Source: Candidatus Latescibacterota bacterium (GTDB taxonomy: Bacteria; Latescibacterota; UBA2968; UBA8231). From it: a DNA stretch of 64,000 nucleotides. The notes beneath the pieces were generated by a model. That model ran no database searches, was not told where the DNA came from, and saw only the letters and a program-made list of their open reading frames with translations. Shown here piece by piece: positions 1 to 34,695 of the stretch (the stretch's first letter is position 1; each line of letters starts with the position of its first letter). Both the position numbers and the translations under genes were made by a program. The stretch is from assembly GCA_965261395.1 (NCBI GenBank), contig OZ253462.1, positions 4,352,001-4,416,000 of the forward strand, read 5' to 3'.

Positions 1-549
1 GGCGATTTGTTCAACTTGCTCTAGCAGGTCCTGAATCAGGGAACTGCGGCTAACAATCTGATAGCGCTGACCTAGCTGGGTCCGGTAAAAGGTGTTGTCG
101 CGGCCCAAGGTCTCGTTCTCGGCCTTGAGGCGGGCGTTTTCGCGCAATACCGCCAACATCCGCTCGACCTTTTCCATCTCCACTTCGAGCTTGTCCTCAA
201 CGTACAAGTCCTTCTCGATAAAATCCGCCGCCCCGGCCTGCACCGCTTCGACCGCCAAGTCAACGCTTCCCTTGCCCGTGAGAATGATAACCGGCAGCTC
301 GGCCCACTGCTTTTTGATCTCTTTCAACACTTCGAGGCCATTGGGCTGGCCAGCGCCAAAGTCAAAGTCCAGCACCACAAGTTCGACGTCCATCGGCCTA
401 GCGGCTAGATGCCCGAGCAACCGCTGGCCATTGGAAAACGAGATGACTTCCTTGCCCAAACTGCGCAGCTTCTCCGCCAACATCTCGCGCAATTCCCGCT
501 GGTCATCGGCGATTAAGACGGCTTTCTGTTTTTTGCCTACCATGACCAT
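1..549 (-). CDS. NtrC-family (sigma-54) response regulator, N-terminal part; runs off the left edge
   Basis: Manual translation (not in the ORF track): MVMVGKKQKAVLIADDQ...VVLDFDFG...PNGLEVLKEIK...LPVIILTGKGSVDLAVEAVQAGAADFIEK is a receiver domain, followed by a coiled coil and YQIVSRSSLIQDLLEQVEQIA, the usual entry into a sigma-54 AAA+ domain. In-frame ATGs at 543, 549 and 555. Confidence 0.85.
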   Translation of the reverse strand, partial: MVMVGKKQKAVLIADDQRELREMLAEKLRSLGKEVISFSNGQRLLGHLAARPMDVELVVLDFDFGAGQPNGLEVLKEIKKQWAELPVIILTGKGSVDLAVEAVQAGAADFIEKDLYVEDKLEVEMEKVERMLAVLRENARLKAENETLGRDNTFYRTQLGQRYQIVSRSSLIQDLLEQVEQIA

Positions 550-571
550 CCTCATTCAATTCACTGAAAGG

Positions 572-1927
572 CTAGGTCTGACCGCCCGCGAAATTGAGCG
601 GCAGATCGAGCCGAAAAACGGTCCCATGTCCCTTTCTGCTCTTGACGCGCAGCACGCCCTGGTGGGCTTGGGCGATGCGGCGCGCAATGCTCAAGCCATA
701 GCCATTGCCCCGCTCCCTAGTGGTAAATCCAGGCTCGAATATCAATTCCAAATGCTCTTCCTCAATGCCTGGCCCATCGTCCTCGACCTCAATAAAGACC
801 AGCGACTGCTCCCCGTCGTAGCCAGCACCCACCACCACTTGGCCACCACGTCCTTCTTCGAGGATTTCCAACGCGTTGAGGCAGAGGTTAGTAATGGCCT
901 CGCGCAGCATCCGCTCGTCGGCCTCTACGCGCGGCAAGCCCTCTTGGACCCGCGTCTGGATCGTGGATTTCCAAGTCTGTCGGCCAAACCCAGCGGCCAC
1001 CCTGCGCACCAAGCTCCCGAGATCGACCACCGCCGGGTGGATTTTATCCGTTTTCATCGCTTCCAAGAACCCCACCCACTCGTCGTACAGAGCCTCGTAT
1101 TCGCCCCCTAAGCGATTCAACTCCCCCCGCTGCGCCTCTTCGGCCTTGCGCCCTAACCCTCGCAAGCGGCTGCCGATGATCCCCATCAGATTCTTGATGC
1201 GATGCCCCTTCGTGTAAAACCCCTCGTACACCTGCTCCTTTCCCAGCTCGACCATTTCCAGCGACAGACGAGCGAGGACTTGTGGAGCGCTTTGCTCAAA
1301 TTCCTCGCAGATGTGCTGGTATTCTTGTTCTAATTCAGGGGGTTTTACATGGCGAAAAAACAAACGGGCCAAATTCGCGTACGGCTGACTGAGCTTGGGG
1401 TCGAGCTGGATGGCTACCTTGAATTCCCCCATCGCCCCCAACACTTGGCCGCCTTGTAGCAAAAGCTGACCCAAGCTGTTGTGCCCAACCGCCGAAAGCG
1501 GGTTGAGCGCCAGCCCCTGGCGGAACGCGCCGATGGCTTCTCCACGCCGCTGCGGATCTTCGTTGTATTGACTGCCAAGAGCGAAAAAGACGCGATCGAG
1601 AGCTGGGTATTCGCGCCCTTCCTCGGCCGCGCGCACGATGGCCTCAAAGTGAGTCAGCGACCGCTCGCGGAACCGGGCATTGCGCCGTCCTTGGCGCATT
1701 GCGAGCAAGCCGAGTTGGTAATGACTTTCTAGATGCCCGCTCTCCGCGGCCGCTTCCAGCGCTGTGATGCCCACTTGCTCATCCCCCAGTTCCAAGAGAC
1801 AAAGCCCTTTGCGATGCTGAAGCTCCAAGTCATCGGGCTCCTGCGCTAGGCCGCGCTCGCACCACTCCAGCGCCTCGGCCCAACGCGCACCTTCACAAGC
1901 CTCTACAGCGCGGTCAAGCCAATTCAC
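572..1927 (-). CDS. Soluble sensor histidine kinase with N-terminal TPR repeats
   Basis: TPR-like repeats over the first ~190 aa; H-box-like GHRIKN; N box EAITNLCLNA; G1 VEDDGPGI; F box IFEPGFTT; G2 GNGYGL. No hydrophobic TM stretch seen. Confidence 0.9.
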   Translation of the reverse strand: MNWLDRAVEACEGARWAEALEWCERGLAQEPDDLELQHRKGLCLLELGDEQVGITALEAAAESGHLESHYQLGLLAMRQGRRNARFRERSLTHFEAIVRAAEEGREYPALDRVFFALGSQYNEDPQRRGEAIGAFRQGLALNPLSAVGHNSLGQLLLQGGQVLGAMGEFKVAIQLDPKLSQPYANLARLFFRHVKPPELEQEYQHICEEFEQSAPQVLARLSLEMVELGKEQVYEGFYTKGHRIKNLMGIIGSRLRGLGRKAEEAQRGELNRLGGEYEALYDEWVGFLEAMKTDKIHPAVVDLGSLVRRVAAGFGRQTWKSTIQTRVQEGLPRVEADERMLREAITNLCLNALEILEEGRGGQVVVGAGYDGEQSLVFIEVEDDGPGIEEEHLELIFEPGFTTRERGNGYGLSIARRIAQAHQGVLRVKSRKGHGTVFRLDLPLNFAGGQT

Positions 1928-1930
1928 GGC

Positions 1931-2299
1931 CTAGCCTTGCTCTCGTTGTTCCTGGCGCTCCCAAGGTTTAGATTCTGCCCCGTCCATATGGTCAATCTTT
2001 TCGCTGAGAGCAATCATGACGTCCTGCACCTCGGTCAGCCGCTGCTCGACTGAGGCCAACCGCTCCCGCAGTGCGTCTGGCTCAATGCCCTTGTCCTCGG
2101 ATACAGTCGCCTTGAGCTTGAGGTATTCGGCAACTTTGGCGATGCCGAAAATCGCCACAGCGGCCAACAAGAGTGGCGTCAGAATGACGGGCCCCATCAG
2201 ACCGAAGGAGCTCGGGTGGCTGGGAAACGCAGAGAAAAAAAGAACACACAACGCGATACCAGCGAGGAATCCGAAGACGATCCCCTTATTCTTGTCCAT
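1931..2299 (-). CDS. Small membrane protein with C-terminal coiled coil (PspB-like), 2 TM
   Basis: Two hydrophobic segments then RERLASVEQRLTEVQDVMIALSEKID; RBS-like AAGGAG upstream; located in the pspA cluster. Confidence 0.7.
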   Translation of the reverse strand: MDKNKGIVFGFLAGIALCVLFFSAFPSHPSSFGLMGPVILTPLLLAAVAIFGIAKVAEYLKLKATVSEDKGIEPDALRERLASVEQRLTEVQDVMIALSEKIDHMDGAESKPWERQEQREQG

Positions 2300-2342
2300 G
2301 ATTAGCTCCTTTCCCTCTCTTCGATGGAATTAACTTTTTCAA

Positions 2343-2618
2343 TCAGCTCTTCTTCCCATCTGCCTTTTTCGTGCTCCAAGGTTTAGCTCCTACCCCGTCC
2401 ATGTAGTCGATCTTTTCGCTGAGGGCAATCATGACGTCCTGCACCTCGGTCAGCCGCTGCTCAACTCGCTCTAGCCGCTTGACGATCAAATCCTCTTCCT
2501 CTTTGGCTTTTTTGTCCCTTCGCTTGCGGCTCGAATAATACTTGTTGCCCCAATTGACCAATCCACTGCACAGGATGATGAGACATACGCCAATGGCGAC
2601 CTGCAAAAACCCATTCAT
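2343..2618 (-). CDS. Small membrane protein with C-terminal coiled coil (PspB-like), 1 TM; paralog of 1931-2299
   Basis: N-terminal TM, basic stretch, then RLERVEQRLTEVQDVMIALSEKID; GGAGGGAG RBS upstream. Confidence 0.7.
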   Translation of the reverse strand: MNGFLQVAIGVCLIILCSGLVNWGNKYYSSRKRRDKKAKEEEDLIVKRLERVEQRLTEVQDVMIALSEKIDYMDGVGAKPWSTKKADGKKS

Positions 2619-2721
2619 TTGCTCCCTCCCTGTCTGAGCCTATGCACGCGCCAGCCATGAGCACGTGCCATTGAATCGCTGCAAAAACCAGTTCACTTGA
2701 TCCCGCCTTTGCCTGTTTGTA

Positions 2722-3246
2722 TCAGGCGCTTTCGACGCCCCGACTCCAGTGTTTTTCGTGCGCGAAAAGCACTTCTGGAAAGCGATAGACGATCAGACCC
2801 GAATCGGTTATTTCGACCTCGACGAATCCCCCATCGGCCAAACGCTTGAGAATCTCCGAGGCTTCCTCGACCGTCAGCCCGGTATCGGCCGCCGCTTCGG
2901 TCACCGTCAGGCGGCCACTTCTCTTCTGAGCCAGACGCACCACGCGGTTTTGTTGACGGCGGTAGCGGACCAAATGCGCGGCTGCATCGAGCTTTTTGGC
3001 CAGTATCCAGAGCAAGCTGCCAAAAATGGTCTGGGTGACGCCAATGGCAAAAAACTCGAAATGGGAATCTGGACCATCGGCATGGAGGATTTGAAAAAGT
3101 CCGTAGAGCATAAACCCCAGCCCCATCGGCACCATCGGCACGGCCATTACCTTGAGAAAAAGAGCGCCTAGGCGCTTGAATCCCCCTTCCATAGCACTTC
3201 TTACCTCGCTTTTTGCCGCGTTGGGCGGTCTCATCGTCATAGCCAT
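2722..3246 (-). CDS. 2-TM membrane protein with C-terminal winged-helix-like cytoplasmic domain
   Basis: Two hydrophobic helices followed by GRLTVTEAAADTGLTVEEASEILKRLADGGFVEVEITDSGLIVYRF (wHTH pattern). Confidence 0.7.
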   Translation of the reverse strand: MAMTMRPPNAAKSEVRSAMEGGFKRLGALFLKVMAVPMVPMGLGFMLYGLFQILHADGPDSHFEFFAIGVTQTIFGSLLWILAKKLDAAAHLVRYRRQQNRVVRLAQKRSGRLTVTEAAADTGLTVEEASEILKRLADGGFVEVEITDSGLIVYRFPEVLFAHEKHWSRGVESA

Positions 3247-3293
3247 CAGTTCTCCGAATTCAGCAGTCGCACAACATGCTGCGGGCCATAGGG

Positions 3294-3968
3294 TTACTTA
3301 TCTTTTTTCATCTTGTCCTTTAAAGCCTTCAATTCGTCGTCAACGCTGTGATCTGCTTCGATTTGGCGGATCTCTTTCTCAACATCTTCCATCTCGCCCG
3401 AAATCTCTACGTGCGCGGCAGCTTCTGCCTCGCTCTCTTCGACTTTCTGCTCAAAGCGCTCAAAACTGGAAAAGGCGTCCTGACCCAACCCGGAAATGCT
3501 TTGGGCGAGACGCTTGCGGGCCTGGGCAGCTTGGTGGCGAGCGATCAACGTGCCCTGTCGGGTCCGTGCTTCTTCGAGCTTGGTCTTTAGCTCGCGTAAC
3601 TGCTCGCGCAATTGCTCGGCCGTCTGCCGACTCTCCTCCACGGCCGGAGCCAGATCCTCGGCCGCTTTGGCAAACACCGCTTTGCGCTCCAGCGCCCGTC
3701 GCGCCAGCACATCCTCGCCCGCTTCCACCGCCCGTTCGGCCTTGCGCTGCCATTCGGCTACCTGGCTTTGCTTGTCGTTGAACTGGCGCTCGAGCCGCTT
3801 GTGATTGGCCACAGCGGTCCCGACCGAGGCCGTGGCCTTGCCGACTGCCTCTTCCATGTCCCGCACCATTTGGCGGATCATCTTGTCCGGCTCTTCGGCC
3901 CGGTCGAGCATTTCGTTGATATTGGACTTGAGGATATCGCTTATCCTCGCAAAGGCTCCCTTAGCCAT
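3294..3968 (-). CDS. pspA: PspA/IM30 (Vipp1, ESCRT-III-like) family protein
   Basis: N-terminus FARISDILKSNINEMLDRAEEPDKMIRQ, LARRALERK, FERFEQKVEE, C-terminus VDDELKALK; all-helical, 224 aa. Confidence 0.95.
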   Translation of the reverse strand: MAKGAFARISDILKSNINEMLDRAEEPDKMIRQMVRDMEEAVGKATASVGTAVANHKRLERQFNDKQSQVAEWQRKAERAVEAGEDVLARRALERKAVFAKAAEDLAPAVEESRQTAEQLREQLRELKTKLEEARTRQGTLIARHQAAQARKRLAQSISGLGQDAFSSFERFEQKVEESEAEAAAHVEISGEMEDVEKEIRQIEADHSVDDELKALKDKMKKDK

Positions 3969-4017
3969 CGTACACCTTCCTTGATTGAGTGAAGCTTATC
4001 ATGCGTTATTCCTAACT

Positions 4018-4033
4018 TGCAAGAGCTGTGCCA
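4018..4033 (-). promoter_or_regulatory. Sigma-54 (-24/-12) promoter for pspA
   Basis: Minus strand reads TGGCAC-AGCTC-TTGCA, an exact match to TGGCAC-N5-TTGCA, about 50 bp upstream of the pspA start. Confidence 0.9.
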
Positions 4034-4110
4034 AAAATGCCAGCACATCCGTAATTTATTACAGCCCATTGTGTTATAGACAAAACATATATCGAATTAC
4101 CACTTGTTAA

Positions 4111-4155
4111 TGGCCAGATTCGCCACTTGACTGGCGTCATTGGCCATTTTCGCTC
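4111..4155. promoter_or_regulatory. Candidate enhancer (UAS) sites for a sigma-54 activator
   Basis: TGGCCAGATTCGCCA (4111) and TGGCCATTTTCGCTC (4141) are repeated with a 30-bp period, 80-120 bp upstream of the -24 box, with an AT-rich tract in between. Confidence 0.5.
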
Positions 4156-4194
4156 CTTTAGTTATTATAACAAATCTTCAAAAAGGATCGTGCC

Positions 4195-5637
4195 ATGGCC
4201 AATCCATTGGTCTTGATCGGCTTGGGTGTCTATCTCGCGGTGATGCTCGGCGTTGGCCTATACGCTGGCCGCCGCGTCCGCAACTCGACCGACTTCATCG
4301 TCGCCGGCCAACGCCTGCCCCTGTTGCTCTGTACCGCAACCCTCGCAGCAACATGGTTTGGCGGTGGAATCTGCATTGGCGCTGCAAGTGCTGCATATAA
4401 GGGCGGCATCCTCGCGGTCATTGCCGACCCTTTTGGCGCGGCTTTGTGCCTGTTCCTCGCCGGCCTCTTTTACGTGCGGATGATGCGGCGCATGGGTTTG
4501 ATGACGATCGCATCCTTTTTTAGCCGCCGCTTCGGCCCTCGGGCGGGCCTACTGGCCAGCCTTTGCACCATTCCCGCCTATGTCGGCTGGACGGGCTCGC
4601 TCTTGGTGGCCTTTGGGCGAATCCTGCAGAGCCTCACCGGCATCGATCCCGCCATCGGCATCTGTGCAGCCGCAGTCATCGTGCTGATCTACACTTGGGC
4701 CGGCGGCATGTGGGCCGTAACGCTAACCGACTTTATCCAAGTGACCGTCCTCATACTCGGGTTGTTTATTTTGACGCCGATTCTCCTCGGCGACATGGGC
4801 GGCTGGAAGGCCCTCGTCGCTCAAATTCCGGCCTCCCGCTTCGATTTCTACCCTCGCGGCGACGCGACCAGTTGGTTGGCCTATGCGCGCGACTGGCTGG
4901 TCATCGGCCTCGGCAACCTAGCGGGCCAAGACCTAATCCAGCGCAGTCTTTCCAGCCGCGACGAAAAGGTGGCCTACCGCAGCGCGTACCTCGCTGGGCT
5001 GCTTTATATAACAGTCGGGCTATTGCCCGTTTTCCTCGGCATGGCGGGTGCGATCGTCCTCCCGGATTTGGCCGACCCCGACCTAGTTATGATGGCCCTC
5101 GCACTAAAGTACCTCCCGGATCTGGCCTTGGTCCTCTTTATGGGTGCCCTCGTCTCGGCCCTCCTGTCCAGCGCCGACAGTGCCCTCCTCGCTCCAGCGA
5201 GCGTCATTGGCTGGGACCTCCTGCGCTTTTTCAAACCCGACGCTGAAGAGCGGTCGTCGCTGCGCGTGACGCGCTGGTCCGTCCTCTTTTTGGGCGCGGT
5301 ATCTCTACTGTTGGCCCTCCGGACCGCTTCGGTGTACGATTTGATGGTCAACTCTTGGTCTGTGCTCCTCGCCTCGCTGTTCGTCCCGCTAACCGCTGGC
5401 TTGTGGTGGCCCAAAAGCAACGGCCCCGGGGCCTTAGCTTCCATAGGAGTCGGCCTGTGCACCTGGCAGATACTGAGGATGCTCTCCACGGATTTGCCGG
5501 CCGATCTTTTGGCCGTACCCTTTTCCGCCCTCGCCTTGGTAATCGTCAGCTTACTAACCCAGAAGCAGGCCCCGCCACAGCCCTTGCTCGATGCCGAGGG
5601 ACGCCCCCTGCCCTATAAAAACCGCTTGGGCATTTAA
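4195..5637 (+). CDS. Sodium:solute symporter (SSS) family protein
   Basis: About 13 TM helices; DFIVAGQRLP, ATWFGGG, YTWAGGMWAVTLTDFIQ, QDLIQR, SSADS motifs. Confidence 0.93.
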   Translation: MANPLVLIGLGVYLAVMLGVGLYAGRRVRNSTDFIVAGQRLPLLLCTATLAATWFGGGICIGAASAAYKGGILAVIADPFGAALCLFLAGLFYVRMMRRMGLMTIASFFSRRFGPRAGLLASLCTIPAYVGWTGSLLVAFGRILQSLTGIDPAIGICAAAVIVLIYTWAGGMWAVTLTDFIQVTVLILGLFILTPILLGDMGGWKALVAQIPASRFDFYPRGDATSWLAYARDWLVIGLGNLAGQDLIQRSLSSRDEKVAYRSAYLAGLLYITVGLLPVFLGMAGAIVLPDLADPDLVMMALALKYLPDLALVLFMGALVSALLSSADSALLAPASVIGWDLLRFFKPDAEERSSLRVTRWSVLFLGAVSLLLALRTASVYDLMVNSWSVLLASLFVPLTAGLWWPKSNGPGALASIGVGLCTWQILRMLSTDLPADLLAVPFSALALVIVSLLTQKQAPPQPLLDAEGRPLPYKNRLGI

Positions 5638-11833: not shown

Positions 11834-13114
11834 ATGTCACCTGCTCAACTTCGCATTCTAGTCCCTCTCGAAAACCCGCACCAAGAACACAATCTCGTCG
11901 ACTTGGCTGCGACCCTCGCCCCTTCTCCTTGGGGCGAACTGCACTTGACCCACATCCTGACGCCCGACTCTGCACCCCTGCCCAACATAGAACAGGCACT
12001 CCAAGTTTCGGCCGACCGGGCCATGGCCCACGACATCGGCGCAATCGCGCATTTGGAAGAAGACGAGGACGTGACGAGCGGAATTCAGCGGGCTGTCCGC
12101 CGCTGGAGCTGCAACATGATGCTCATGGCCTGGAAGGCCAATGTCGAGCGCGACGCGATCCTATCCGCAGCCAACCGCGCTCTGACCAAGGCCATCGACG
12201 TCGACACCTTGATTTTTAAGGAAAAGAAGCGCGGGCCGGTGCGCCGGATTCTCGTGCCCTTCGGCGGCGGCAATCACGCGCTGGTGGGCGTGCAGATCGC
12301 CTACGATCTGGCCCAAACCTGGGGCGCTGAGTTGGAGATTCTCCGCATCGCCCGCGACACCCGCGACCCCTCCGACCCGATCCTCCAGCGCTACTGTTCG
12401 CAGCTAGCCGCAGACACGCGCTTGCAGCTAGAGTTGCTGAAGATCGATGTACCGTTGACGGTGGTCCCGGCCGTCGATGTGGTCCCGGCCATCGTCGAAA
12501 AGGCGCAAAACCACGATTTGATCGTACTCGGTGCCTCAAACGACTGGCGCCAAGAGGAACATCTCGCCGGCTCCATCCCGGACGAGATCGCCTATCGGGT
12601 GCCCTGTTCGGTACTAATGGTCCGCTCGGCTGCGGCCAACGACTTGCAGCTAAGTCGCATTTTCTGGGAGCACACCATCCGCTTGGACCTCACCCCCAAA
12701 GACAAGTGGGATGCCATCGCCCAGATGGTCGATGCGTTAATCGAAGAAAAACAAATCCCCGCCAACGAACGCCAGACCGTACTCGAGGCCGCGCTCGACC
12801 GCGAGCGCAAAGGCTCAACCTCGCTAGGGCACGGCACGGCCATTCCCCATGCGCCCATCCCGGATCTGGACGGGATTATCGGCTGCTTGGGGATTTGCCG
12901 ACAGGGCATTGACTTTGAAGGTACTACCCCTGAGCCGGTACACTTCATCTTCCTGCTGTTGACCCCGGAACAAAACTACCGCAGCTATATCCCGATCCTC
13001 GCCCAGATCGCGACCTTGATGCATGCCGACACCACCCACCGCGACATGCTCGCCTCGCAAACGCCGGCGGAAATAACCGCCGTTCTCAAGAGCCTGCCGC
13101 AACCGCGCCGCTAA
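11834..13114 (+). CDS. Tandem universal stress protein domains fused to a PTS EIIA (Ntr/Fru-type) domain
   Basis: ILVP...; RRILVPFGGG...DLIVLGAS...GSIPDEIAYRVPCSVLMVR; C-terminal DRERKGSTSLGHGTAIPHA and PVHFIFLLL. Confidence 0.85.
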   Translation: MSPAQLRILVPLENPHQEHNLVDLAATLAPSPWGELHLTHILTPDSAPLPNIEQALQVSADRAMAHDIGAIAHLEEDEDVTSGIQRAVRRWSCNMMLMAWKANVERDAILSAANRALTKAIDVDTLIFKEKKRGPVRRILVPFGGGNHALVGVQIAYDLAQTWGAELEILRIARDTRDPSDPILQRYCSQLAADTRLQLELLKIDVPLTVVPAVDVVPAIVEKAQNHDLIVLGASNDWRQEEHLAGSIPDEIAYRVPCSVLMVRSAAANDLQLSRIFWEHTIRLDLTPKDKWDAIAQMVDALIEEKQIPANERQTVLEAALDRERKGSTSLGHGTAIPHAPIPDLDGIIGCLGICRQGIDFEGTTPEPVHFIFLLLTPEQNYRSYIPILAQIATLMHADTTHRDMLASQTPAEITAVLKSLPQPRR

Positions 13115-33763: not shown

Positions 33764-34695
33764 GAAGCCGTCTGAAAACCCTTGCTGTAGCCGGTATTTG
33801 AATCGGCGTACTCATCGAGCCATATTCAGGTTTCGCGACAAAATCTGAACAGAAAGGCTCGTATGATGAGTACGCCTAGTAGGCAATATGCCACCGATGT
33901 AACCGATGTGCAATGGCGTCGGATCGAACCGTTGCTGCCGGCTTCGACATGGCAGCCGAACGGTCCGGGTCGGCCACCGCGGGATCGACGCCAGATCGTC
34001 AACGGCCTTTTGTATCTGACCAAGACCGGTTGTCCTTGGGCTTTGTTGCCTTCTTGTTTTGGACCGTGGAAAACGGTGTATGATTACTTTCGTCGCTGGA
34101 GTCTACAAGGGGTCTGGCCGCAGGTATTGGATCGACTCACCCAGCGGGAACGCCGCCTCAACGGACGGGCTCCAACGCCGTCGGCTGGCGTAGTCGATAG
34201 TCAGACGATCAAGACGGCAACCCATGGTAAAACAACCGGTTATGACGCCGGAAAAAAGGTCAAGGGGCGCAAGCGTCATCTGTTGGTCGACACCTCGGGC
34301 TTGCTTAGACAGGTGGTGGTCACCGCCGCCGATGTAGAGGATCGGGACGGCCTCAAGCAGGTGTTGACCCGCTTGGGGGCCTCCGGCGTAGCCCGGTTAC
34401 GCAAACTGTGGGGCGATGGCGGCTATCGAGGCGATCCGATCCGAACGTGGGTGGCTAACGTAAAAAAGACGCACAAAATAGACTTGGAAGTCGTCGCCAA
34501 ACAAGGCCCCGGCTTTGAGGTGTTACCACGCCGTTGGGTCGTCGAGCGCACGTTTGCGTGGTTGATGAATTTTCGCCGACATGCCCGAGATTATGAGGTG
34601 TTGACCCACCATAGCGAAGCCTTGATCCAGATTGCTATGATCCACTTGCTGCTCAAACGGATCAAATAGAAAAAATATAGTTTTCAGACGGCTTC
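33764..34695 (+). mobile_element. IS5-family (IS1031-like) insertion sequence, 932 bp
   Basis: Perfect 16-bp TIRs GAAGCCGTCTGAAAAC / GTTTTCAGACGGCTTC; 3-bp TSD TCA at 33761-33763 and 34696-34698. Confidence 0.95.
33863..34669 (+). CDS. IS5-family DDE transposase
   Basis: YATDVTDVQW, KTGCPW, VDSQT, GYDAGKKVKGRKRH, DGGY, RWVVERTFAW; single intact ORF. Confidence 0.96.
   Translation: MMSTPSRQYATDVTDVQWRRIEPLLPASTWQPNGPGRPPRDRRQIVNGLLYLTKTGCPWALLPSCFGPWKTVYDYFRRWSLQGVWPQVLDRLTQRERRLNGRAPTPSAGVVDSQTIKTATHGKTTGYDAGKKVKGRKRHLLVDTSGLLRQVVVTAADVEDRDGLKQVLTRLGASGVARLRKLWGDGGYRGDPIRTWVANVKKTHKIDLEVVAKQGPGFEVLPRRWVVERTFAWLMNFRRHARDYEVLTHHSEALIQIAMIHLLLKRIK

Follow-up and report, generated by a model that had tools for sequence, protein, structure and literature searches.

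We analysed a 64,000-nucleotide stretch of the genome of a Candidatus Latescibacterota bacterium (contig OZ253462.1, positions 4,352,001 to 4,416,000; hereafter the window), one end of which carries an operon headed by pspA, the gene of the phage shock protein (Psp) effector PspA. The whole operon lies on the minus strand, within positions 1-4155 of the window, and six co-directional genes were recognized in it. In the order of transcription, they encode PspA (3294..3968, 224 amino acids), a winged-helix protein with two transmembrane (TM) segments (2722..3246, 174 amino acids), small membrane protein 1 with one TM segment (2343..2618, 91 amino acids), its paralog small membrane protein 2 with two TM segments (1931..2299, 122 amino acids), a soluble tetratricopeptide repeat (TPR) histidine kinase (572..1927, 451 amino acids), and a response regulator whose 5' part, the first 185 codons (1..555), falls within the window, the remainder lying past its edge. 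The intergenic gaps in gene order are 47, 103, 43, 3, and 16 nt, and neither terminator-like sites nor convincing internal promoters were found in these five gaps. Upstream of pspA, on the same strand, are an exact match to the sigma-54 (-24/-12) promoter (4018..4033), an AT-rich spacer (4034..4110), and a putative upstream activator sequence of two palindromes (4111-4125 and 4132-4146). An earlier note, made from this DNA alone, had described a perfect sigma-54 promoter followed by a co-directional gene set with short gaps; every element that it listed is present, and the activator sites at 4111-4146 had been overlooked in it. We conclude that the locus is a real and conserved new variant of the Psp system, not a categorically new system, and that it is known from genomics only.

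The distribution of this arrangement was investigated in a genome scan with one genome per species, which gave 71 loci encoding a relative of the kinase. Sixty-eight ingroup loci (kinase identity 43-96%) came from genomes labelled Latescibacterota, Gemmatimonadota-type, Planctomycetota (one), or uncultured, and the kinases of three outgroup loci were 33-34% identical. The six window proteins were compared with the 71 loci by tblastn. The regulator gene was directly downstream of the kinase gene in 69 of the 71 loci (the misses were L066, at a contig end, and L069), the winged-helix gene directly followed pspA in 65 (all except L036, L043, L064, and the 3 outgroups), and pspA was found upstream in 64 (all except L017, L036, L043, and L064, at contig ends, and the 3 outgroups). 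The gene order was kept in all 64 ingroup loci with enough flanking DNA, out of 68; the synteny of pspA, TPR kinase, and regulator that the earlier note had proposed to look for is thus retained wherever the contig allows. A distant clade of 21 loci (L042-L060, L065, L067) has 4-6 kb between the psp genes and the kinase gene (e.g., L056:1911-6735). The insert encodes an ECF sigma factor in 21 loci, a partner open reading frame (ORF) in 18, a 504-amino-acid Band_7/SPFH protein in 18, and a STAS protein in 13. As for the taxonomic labels, two loci labelled Gemmatimonadetes/Gemmatimonadota (L003 and L019) have kinases 91-92% identical to that of the window, and those labelled Latescibacterota have 89-96%. 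Because these ranges overlap, the phylum labels of these metagenome-assembled genomes (L003 and L019 vs. L001-L016) are inconsistent.

Two of the three outgroup loci (L070 and L071) belong to a pair of Deltaproteobacteria/Polyangia (Myxococcota)-type assemblies; they are 99% identical at the locus and were therefore counted as one lineage. Here (L070:9663-10948, L071:5304-6541) the order is a longer TPR-like kinase (33% identity), an NtrC-class regulator (42%; REC, Sigma54_activat, and HTH_8), and a PspA_IM30 protein. This last protein (E ~1e-12, with a Ser-rich linker) was missed by tblastn; its start overlaps the stop of the regulator gene, and a 135-amino-acid helical protein follows it with overlapping stop/start codons. 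The linkage of kinase, regulator, and PspA thus recurs in a second lineage, in a different order. A search of this outgroup for a sigma-54 promoter gave a sole match, inside the coding sequence of the regulator's helix-turn-helix (HTH), and it was rejected as a coding coincidence. In the third outgroup locus (L069), a related kinase stands beside PrkA and DUF444, and neither regulator nor PspA is found there.

The promoter, TGGCACAGCTCTTGCA at 4033-4018, is the sole exact match to TGGCAC-N5-TTGCA in the window. Shuffled sequences led us to expect 0.01 such matches, with 1 of 100 shuffles giving one. From the end of the promoter to the ATG of pspA there are 49 nt. In 59 of 64 loci, a -24/-12 element agreeing at nine or more of the 11 positions was found no more than 300 nt upstream of pspA; in L047 and L053, the promoter is reduced to GG-N10-GC, and in L048, L051, and L067 the DNA upstream is too short for the check. 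Two palindromes of the form TGGC-N7-GCCA stand in tandem on the upstream side of the -24 element, at a distance of ~80-110 bp, and 21 bp separate their centres. Such a pair occurs only once in the window, and none of 100 shuffles produced it. Paired palindromes ~100 bp upstream of the promoter occupy the same position before pspA in all ingroup clades. In the distant clade, the half-sites are changed to TGGT/CGGT-N7-CACCA (GCCA to CACCA), and coincident with this change the regulator HTH motif DRFRHLLRK becomes DQFRHFYRK. We count this co-change as one evolutionary event; it is consistent with the regulator reading the palindromes and is no proof of it. The spacer at 4110-4034 has a GC content of 0.325 (0.603 for the window), and no E. 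coli-type IHF consensus with one mismatch or fewer was found in the spacer between the palindromes and the promoter. On the other side, a divergent sodium:solute symporter gene (4195-5637, plus strand) shares the 226-bp intergenic region with the psp operon. This region has a sigma-70-like promoter, TTGGCC-17-TATTAT (4140-4168, plus strand), which overlaps one palindrome; therefore, binding of the regulator could also affect the transporter.

The part of the regulator encoded in the window contains a receiver (REC, E 4.4e-20), a linker, and the start of the AAA+ domain. Its 185 residues match the N-terminal part of a 474-amino-acid protein with 99% identity; this protein is encoded at L001, a locus whose kinase is 96% identical to that of the window. 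The L001 regulator has REC, Sigma54_activat (9.4e-65), AAA_lid_14, and HTH_8, with GAFTGA in the sequence; the HTH_8 match is near threshold (23.3 bits vs. a cutoff of 22), and the HTH aligns to that of PspF. Thus GAFTGA, the AAA+ domain, and the Fis HTH, on which the reading of the earlier note depended, are seen in the relatives, the window copy ending at residue 185. Sixty-seven full-length orthologues were aligned, leaving out those of L030 and L064, which are truncated by contig ends. All 67 have GAFTGA, the phospho-acceptor Asp, the acidic pair (DD), and Walker A (GERGTGK in 49, GEPGTGK in 17, and GERGVGK in 1). We found that the best NCBIfam model for the AAA+ core was phageshock_pspF, which gave 365.8 bits on residues 167-406 alone. 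PspF was the top model in three of five regulators from different clades and ranked second and third in the remaining two, with all scores under the equivalog cutoff of 443.55. Over 312 residues covering the AAA+ core and HTH, the regulator is 49% identical to E. coli PspF, and PspF is its best AAA+-only match among solved structures. The position aligned with PspF Trp56, which we take to be the residue by which PspA docks on PspF, is R in 42 orthologues, A in 9, S in 8, K in 5, Q in 2, and G in 1, and is W in none of the 67. The claim in the earlier note of an NtrC regulator in place of PspF therefore stands in part: the protein is NtrC-class with a receiver, but its AAA+ core scores best against PspF. 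From these alignments, the best description of the protein is a PspF-like activator with a receiver added and the tryptophan for PspA docking missing. That the Trp56 equivalent was lost and a receiver gained suggests a shift of control, away from direct contact between PspA and the activator and towards phosphorylation.

The kinase matched the Pfam TPR families and HATPase_c (1.2e-23), and Pfam HisKA gave no match at E ≤ 0.1. It contains no TM segment, the maximum 19-residue Kyte-Doolittle score being 1.07, which agrees with the kinase without membrane anchor proposed earlier. In the AlphaFold2 (AF2) model (pLDDT 86.9, 66-row alignment), eleven TPR-type helices occupy residues 3-193, and one continuous helix (196-261) carries His242 and joins the TPRs to the DHp domain; the second DHp helix and an intact catalytic domain follow. 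His242, in the motif YTKGHxxKN, is invariant in 18 of 18 and in 66 of 66 aligned homologues. The TPR block beside the DHp domain (~110-235, e.g., GEFKVAIQLDP) is conserved like the catalytic core, and the N-terminal TPRs are variable, or missing in some homologues. Structurally, the DHp and catalytic core is closest to the cytoplasmic domain of ZraS (9jfj, E 6.5e-14), and the fold also matches CckA and HK853. The best NCBIfam matches were AtoS and ZraS, which are kinases of NtrC-class regulators. Given the gap of 16 nt and the adjacency in 69 of 71 loci, the kinase is probably the cognate of the adjacent regulator, with phosphotransfer predicted from this adjacency.

The pspA product matched PF04012 (PspA_IM30) at 3.1e-47 (161.4 bits vs. 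a cutoff of 33.9), as the earlier call of this gene implied, and scored 162 bits against the NCBIfam equivalog phageshock_pspA, under the cutoff of 242.95. End to end, it is 33% identical to E. coli PspA. Going by these profiles, it is a member of the PspA/IM30 (ESCRT-III superfamily) proteins and not an equivalog of phageshock_pspA. The gene that always directly follows pspA, at a gap that ranges across loci from 47 nt down to an overlap, encodes the winged-helix protein. It has hydrophobic segments at residues 26-51 and 65-83, and its AF2 model (pLDDT 82.7) has helices at 8-55 and 63-108 and then a winged helix; the second predicted TM helix continues straight into the winged-helix domain, which a disordered tail follows. 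The predicted layout is an N-in TM hairpin with a very short outer loop, a cytoplasmic winged helix, and a disordered tail, in agreement with the two-TM winged HTH protein of the earlier note. The Pfam matches of the C-terminal domain to winged HTH families were sub-threshold (E 0.004-0.05), and Foldseek returned generic winged-helix matches of the ArsR, MarR, IclR, and TFE types, at best E 4e-3. An ESCRT-II-like adaptor was also considered (3cuq_A, rank 14, rmsd 1.6 over 60 columns) and set aside, its E-value being as weak as those of ArsR, MarR, and TFE. The domain is thus a generic winged helix, with its ESCRT-II likeness a lead only. Among the 120 best of 288 homologues, 119 had no Pfam domain, and those named by their source were called "hypothetical", apart from one jgi label that begins "predicted tr". 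The main clade conserves the disordered tail (2722-2760) as EKHWSRGVESA; its counterpart in the distant clade is EKxRAKPVDEL, and in the intermediate clade the tail is poorly conserved. It resembles a short linear motif, to which TPRs could bind.

Small protein 1 consists of one TM segment, a basic stretch, and an invariant cytoplasmic helix, RLTEVQDVMIALSEK; small protein 2 has two TM segments and then the same helix, which across the family reads RLTDVQDVMIALSEK. No Pfam or NCBIfam family was matched by either. The earlier note had called them PspB-like paralogs. They are paralogs by their common helix, but membership in the PspB family was not supported: Pfam PspB (PF06667) matched 0 of 20 family members at E ≤ 1, and hhalign gave 2.5% against E. 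coli PspB and 4.6% against a shallow alignment of 11 PspB sequences, a profile that is weak because the PspB search yielded close enterobacterial relatives only. A language-model search placed the small protein beside a cluster of its own lineage, which has no Pfam family and bears the automatic name "Phage shock protein B family protein"; the nearest Pfam-bearing Atlas cluster was PspB (49% of members), at a score of 0.78, which is a weak lead. The resemblance to PspB thus seems to be one of layout only, namely an N-terminal TM segment, a basic stretch, and a cytoplasmic helix. Of the 71 loci, 63 have at least one ORF with the invariant helix; the exceptions are L040, L055, L062, two short contigs (L036 and L043), and the outgroups. 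The copies number 1-4 per locus and have 0, 1, 2, or 4 TM segments, as judged from uncurated ORF starts. Paralog number varies even among close relatives, L001 having an extra 64-amino-acid copy without a TM segment (L001:6431-6625). Beyond these copies, the helix turned up neither in the rest of the window nor in those parts of the loci that lie away from the psp genes.

When a profile of the small proteins was run against 1.84 billion representatives, it matched 262 relatives at E ≤ 0.001 and 124 at E ≤ 1e-10. Ten relatives were long (262-517 amino acids), and 8 of these 10 (P0457, P0460, P0461, P0470, P0482, P0499, P0503, and P0508; 305-517 amino acids) combine a CBM9_1-like domain with a C-terminal match to the profile. 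P0457, P0460, and P0470 have a signal/anchor, an extracytoplasmic CBM9_1-like domain, one TM segment, and the C-terminal invariant helix, and P0507, which starts inside the domain and looks truncated, has the domain, one TM segment, and the helix. The TM-plus-helix unit can therefore terminate a surface receptor, which fits a cytoplasmic docking or signalling tag. From these comparisons, the small proteins are an unannotated family defined by the invariant cytoplasmic helix.

Considering that several Psp and envelope-stress systems share parts with this locus, its likeness to each was examined. The enterobacterial system (pspF || pspABCDE, in E. coli and Yersinia) has the same PspA/IM30 effector, a sigma-54 promoter with upstream activator sites, an activator whose AAA+ core and HTH are those compared above, and small single-pass membrane proteins with a cytoplasmic helix encoded after pspA. 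In contrast to receiver-less PspF, the activator here has an N-terminal receiver and a paired histidine kinase and never has Trp at the Trp56 position; its gene is co-directional at the operon end rather than divergent, and a two-TM winged-helix protein is added. PspC (PF04024) had no match in the six operon proteins at E ≤ 0.1, and no PspB was found among them by Pfam. ZraPSR is likewise a two-component pair with an NtrC-class regulator and a proposed role in envelope stress, and its kinase core is structurally the closest to ours. ZraS has a periplasmic sensor between two TM segments, and ZraP is a periplasmic accessory protein, whereas the kinase here lacks both TM segments and a periplasmic portion, and PspA serves as effector; no ZraP-like Pfam match was found in the operon. 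The LiaIH-LiaGFSR system of Bacillus has a membrane-embedded kinase, LiaS, and a receiver-HTH regulator without sigma-54, LiaR, according to the part of a Psp survey consulted (PMC11237479), whereas our locus pairs a soluble kinase bearing TPRs with an AAA+ activator of sigma-54; LiaF, LiaI, and Toastrack had no Pfam matches in the operon proteins. As described in the same part of that survey, the mycobacterial clgR-pspA-pspM-pspN locus also has pspA followed by a membrane protein, beside its own regulator, but that regulator is a Cro-like HTH protein without sigma-54 or kinase, and the membrane partner in our locus ends in a winged helix. The consulted text also mentions variants of PspF in Gammaproteobacteria with N-terminal ACT/PAS domains (PMC11237479), which are like our regulator in being PspF-type activators with an N-terminal regulatory domain in a psp context. 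As presented there, those are one-component and ligand-binding; here a phosphorylation-controlled receiver has a dedicated kinase.

The earlier note had regarded the locus as a third wiring of Psp control, beside those of PspF and LiaSR, and it is described in neither of two Psp surveys, as far as their consulted portions go (PMC11237479; 10.1101/2021.02.15.431232). The portion seen of the first survey describes membrane kinases with receiver-HTH regulators; it has no TPR kinase or receiver-bearing sigma-54 activator with pspA, its supplementary tables being outside this scope, and "Latescibacter" and "Gemmatimonad" occur 0 times in that portion (PMC11237479). In the second, PspF outside Enterobacteriaceae is treated as probably unrelated to Psp (10.1101/2021.02.15.431232). 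The psp activator DVU2989 of Desulfovibrio is receiver-less (PMC4641369). A search of the full-text literature, including Latescibacter phage shock and Myxococcus and not covering supplementary tables, did not find the combination of pspA, TPR kinase, and NtrC-class regulator.

Based on this gene content, the reading towards which we lean is that of a self-contained, probably autoregulated, sigma-54-dependent Psp-type membrane-stress operon in which the kinase receives its input by protein contact; we hold it to be somewhat probable. The adjacent kinase would phosphorylate the receiver of the regulator, which would occupy the tandem TGGC-N7-GCCA palindromes ~100 bp upstream and remodel sigma-54 RNA polymerase at the -24/-12 promoter. 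The transcripts would cover pspA and the genes of the winged-helix protein and the small membrane proteins and, in the clade of the window, also those of the kinase and regulator, which would amount to autoregulation. Because the kinase has no TM segment or small-molecule sensor domain and the TPRs, presumably coupled rigidly to the DHp domain, are its sole input module, the signal must arrive as protein contact. The most likely contacts of the TPRs would be the invariant helix of the small proteins, the winged-helix protein, or PspA itself. The docking of E. coli PspA on receiver-less PspF would here be replaced by phosphorylation of the receiver. We infer that phosphate is transferred, that the regulator occupies the palindromes, that the operon regulates itself, and which ligand the TPRs bind. 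A complex prediction with the TPR region (1-213) as partner of PspA, the winged-helix protein (84-174), and the small protein (25-91) gave ipSAE values of 0.00 and 0.00, in a single job of four chains with a tool calibrated on pairs of chains and with controls not run; these values count neither for nor against binding.

Several observations weigh against this reading. The data are drawn entirely from metagenome-assembled genomes, no rpoN was recognized in the 64-kb window, and a receiver-less PspF could be encoded elsewhere in the genome. The insert of 4-6 kb means that co-transcription and autoregulation are not guaranteed in the distant clade, and the Myxococcota-type outgroup showed no recognizable sigma-54 promoter. 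What ties the palindromes to the regulator is their position and the one clade-level co-change, and the contact between the kinase and a partner is a prediction. Since L040, L055, and L062 are otherwise complete yet without a motif-bearing small protein, the small proteins cannot be an obligatory input within the operon.

Another explanation keeps the same transcription circuit and lets the TPR kinase sense something other than the operon's own products, for example a proteostasis signal or an unrelated protein of the cell; the winged-helix protein and the small proteins would then be only membrane anchors or co-effectors of PspA (cf. LiaI-LiaH). The tight coupling of the pspA and winged-helix genes would suit such anchors, and the free variation in copy number (1-4) and TM number of the small proteins, the three loci without them, and the variable or absent N-terminal TPRs of some kinases all speak for it. 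However, few parts of the kinase are as conserved as the TPR block next to the DHp domain, and the kinase stays in the psp locus in all ingroup clades and adjoins PspA in the second lineage, so we consider this explanation rather unlikely. Dual control, in which PspA still inhibits the AAA+ domain in the manner of PspF and the receiver is a second, phosphorylation-dependent gate, would account for the best score of the AAA+ core (365.8 bits on residues 167-406), the rank of PspF in the five regulators, the 49% identity over 312 residues, and the best match among solved structures. But Trp is never found at the Trp56 position (the residue by which PspA docks), the PspF scores are all below 443.55, and PspA is only 33% identical to its E. 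coli counterpart, which makes dual control doubtful to our minds, and more so than the sensing of an unrelated signal.

It might also be supposed that the two-component pair is merely co-located with the psp genes and controls others, while another enhancer-binding protein drives the promoter. The search for other activators covered the window, and the pair of the distant clade is separated from pspA by 4-6 kb that include an ECF sigma factor gene, both of which leave room for this idea. Nevertheless, the linkage holds throughout the ingroup loci that have enough flanking DNA and recurs, in another order, in the second lineage; the HTH and the half-site change together; the paired palindrome is found nowhere else in the window; and no other enhancer-binding protein is encoded in the 64 kb, the earlier note having named a canonical pspF elsewhere as a competing activator of this promoter. 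Mere co-location therefore seems to us very improbable. Returning to the operon with protein-contact input, we can imagine an extension of it, speculative and unlikely to hold in full, in which RLTDVQDVMIALSEK is a portable cytoplasmic output tag carried by membrane mini-proteins of 1, 2, or 4 TM segments and by CBM9 receptors and read by the TPR kinase, with PspA and/or the winged-helix anchor competing for it. If this were true, many membrane and envelope sensors would converge on one cytoplasmic kinase, and the titration by PspA, exerted in E. coli on PspF itself, would turn into a phosphorelay that has its feedback built in.

Elsewhere in the window, a 426-amino-acid protein with a universal stress protein domain and a PTS EIIA_2 domain is encoded at 11834-13114 (plus strand), and an IS4/IS5-type DDE transposase (DUF4096 and DDE_Tnp_1) at 33863-34669 (plus strand). 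A long cluster at 37568-63967 encodes large FG-GAP/ASPIC-repeat proteins, TPR proteins, and proteins with F5/8-type C domains, together with FlgD_ig and CHU_C (type IX secretion-type C-terminal) domains and a PPIase.

Membrane repair by Psp/IM30/ESCRT-III proteins is ancient and widespread, and to our knowledge its regulation is understood in only three model wirings of the Psp response, those of PspF-PspA, LiaFSR, and ClgR. As the whole case is built from metagenome-assembled genomes and inference, the present locus has limited value for the time being. Within this limit, the locus indicates that control of a PspF-like activator can be given to a receiver and a cytoplasmic kinase dedicated to it. 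It brings out two unannotated partner families, the two-TM winged-helix protein after pspA and the module of a TM segment plus invariant helix, and it offers a compact, testable system for how a kinase without membrane contact perceives membrane damage. We know of no cultured members of Latescibacterota, and the operon would give a handle on envelope stress in this uncultured phylum.

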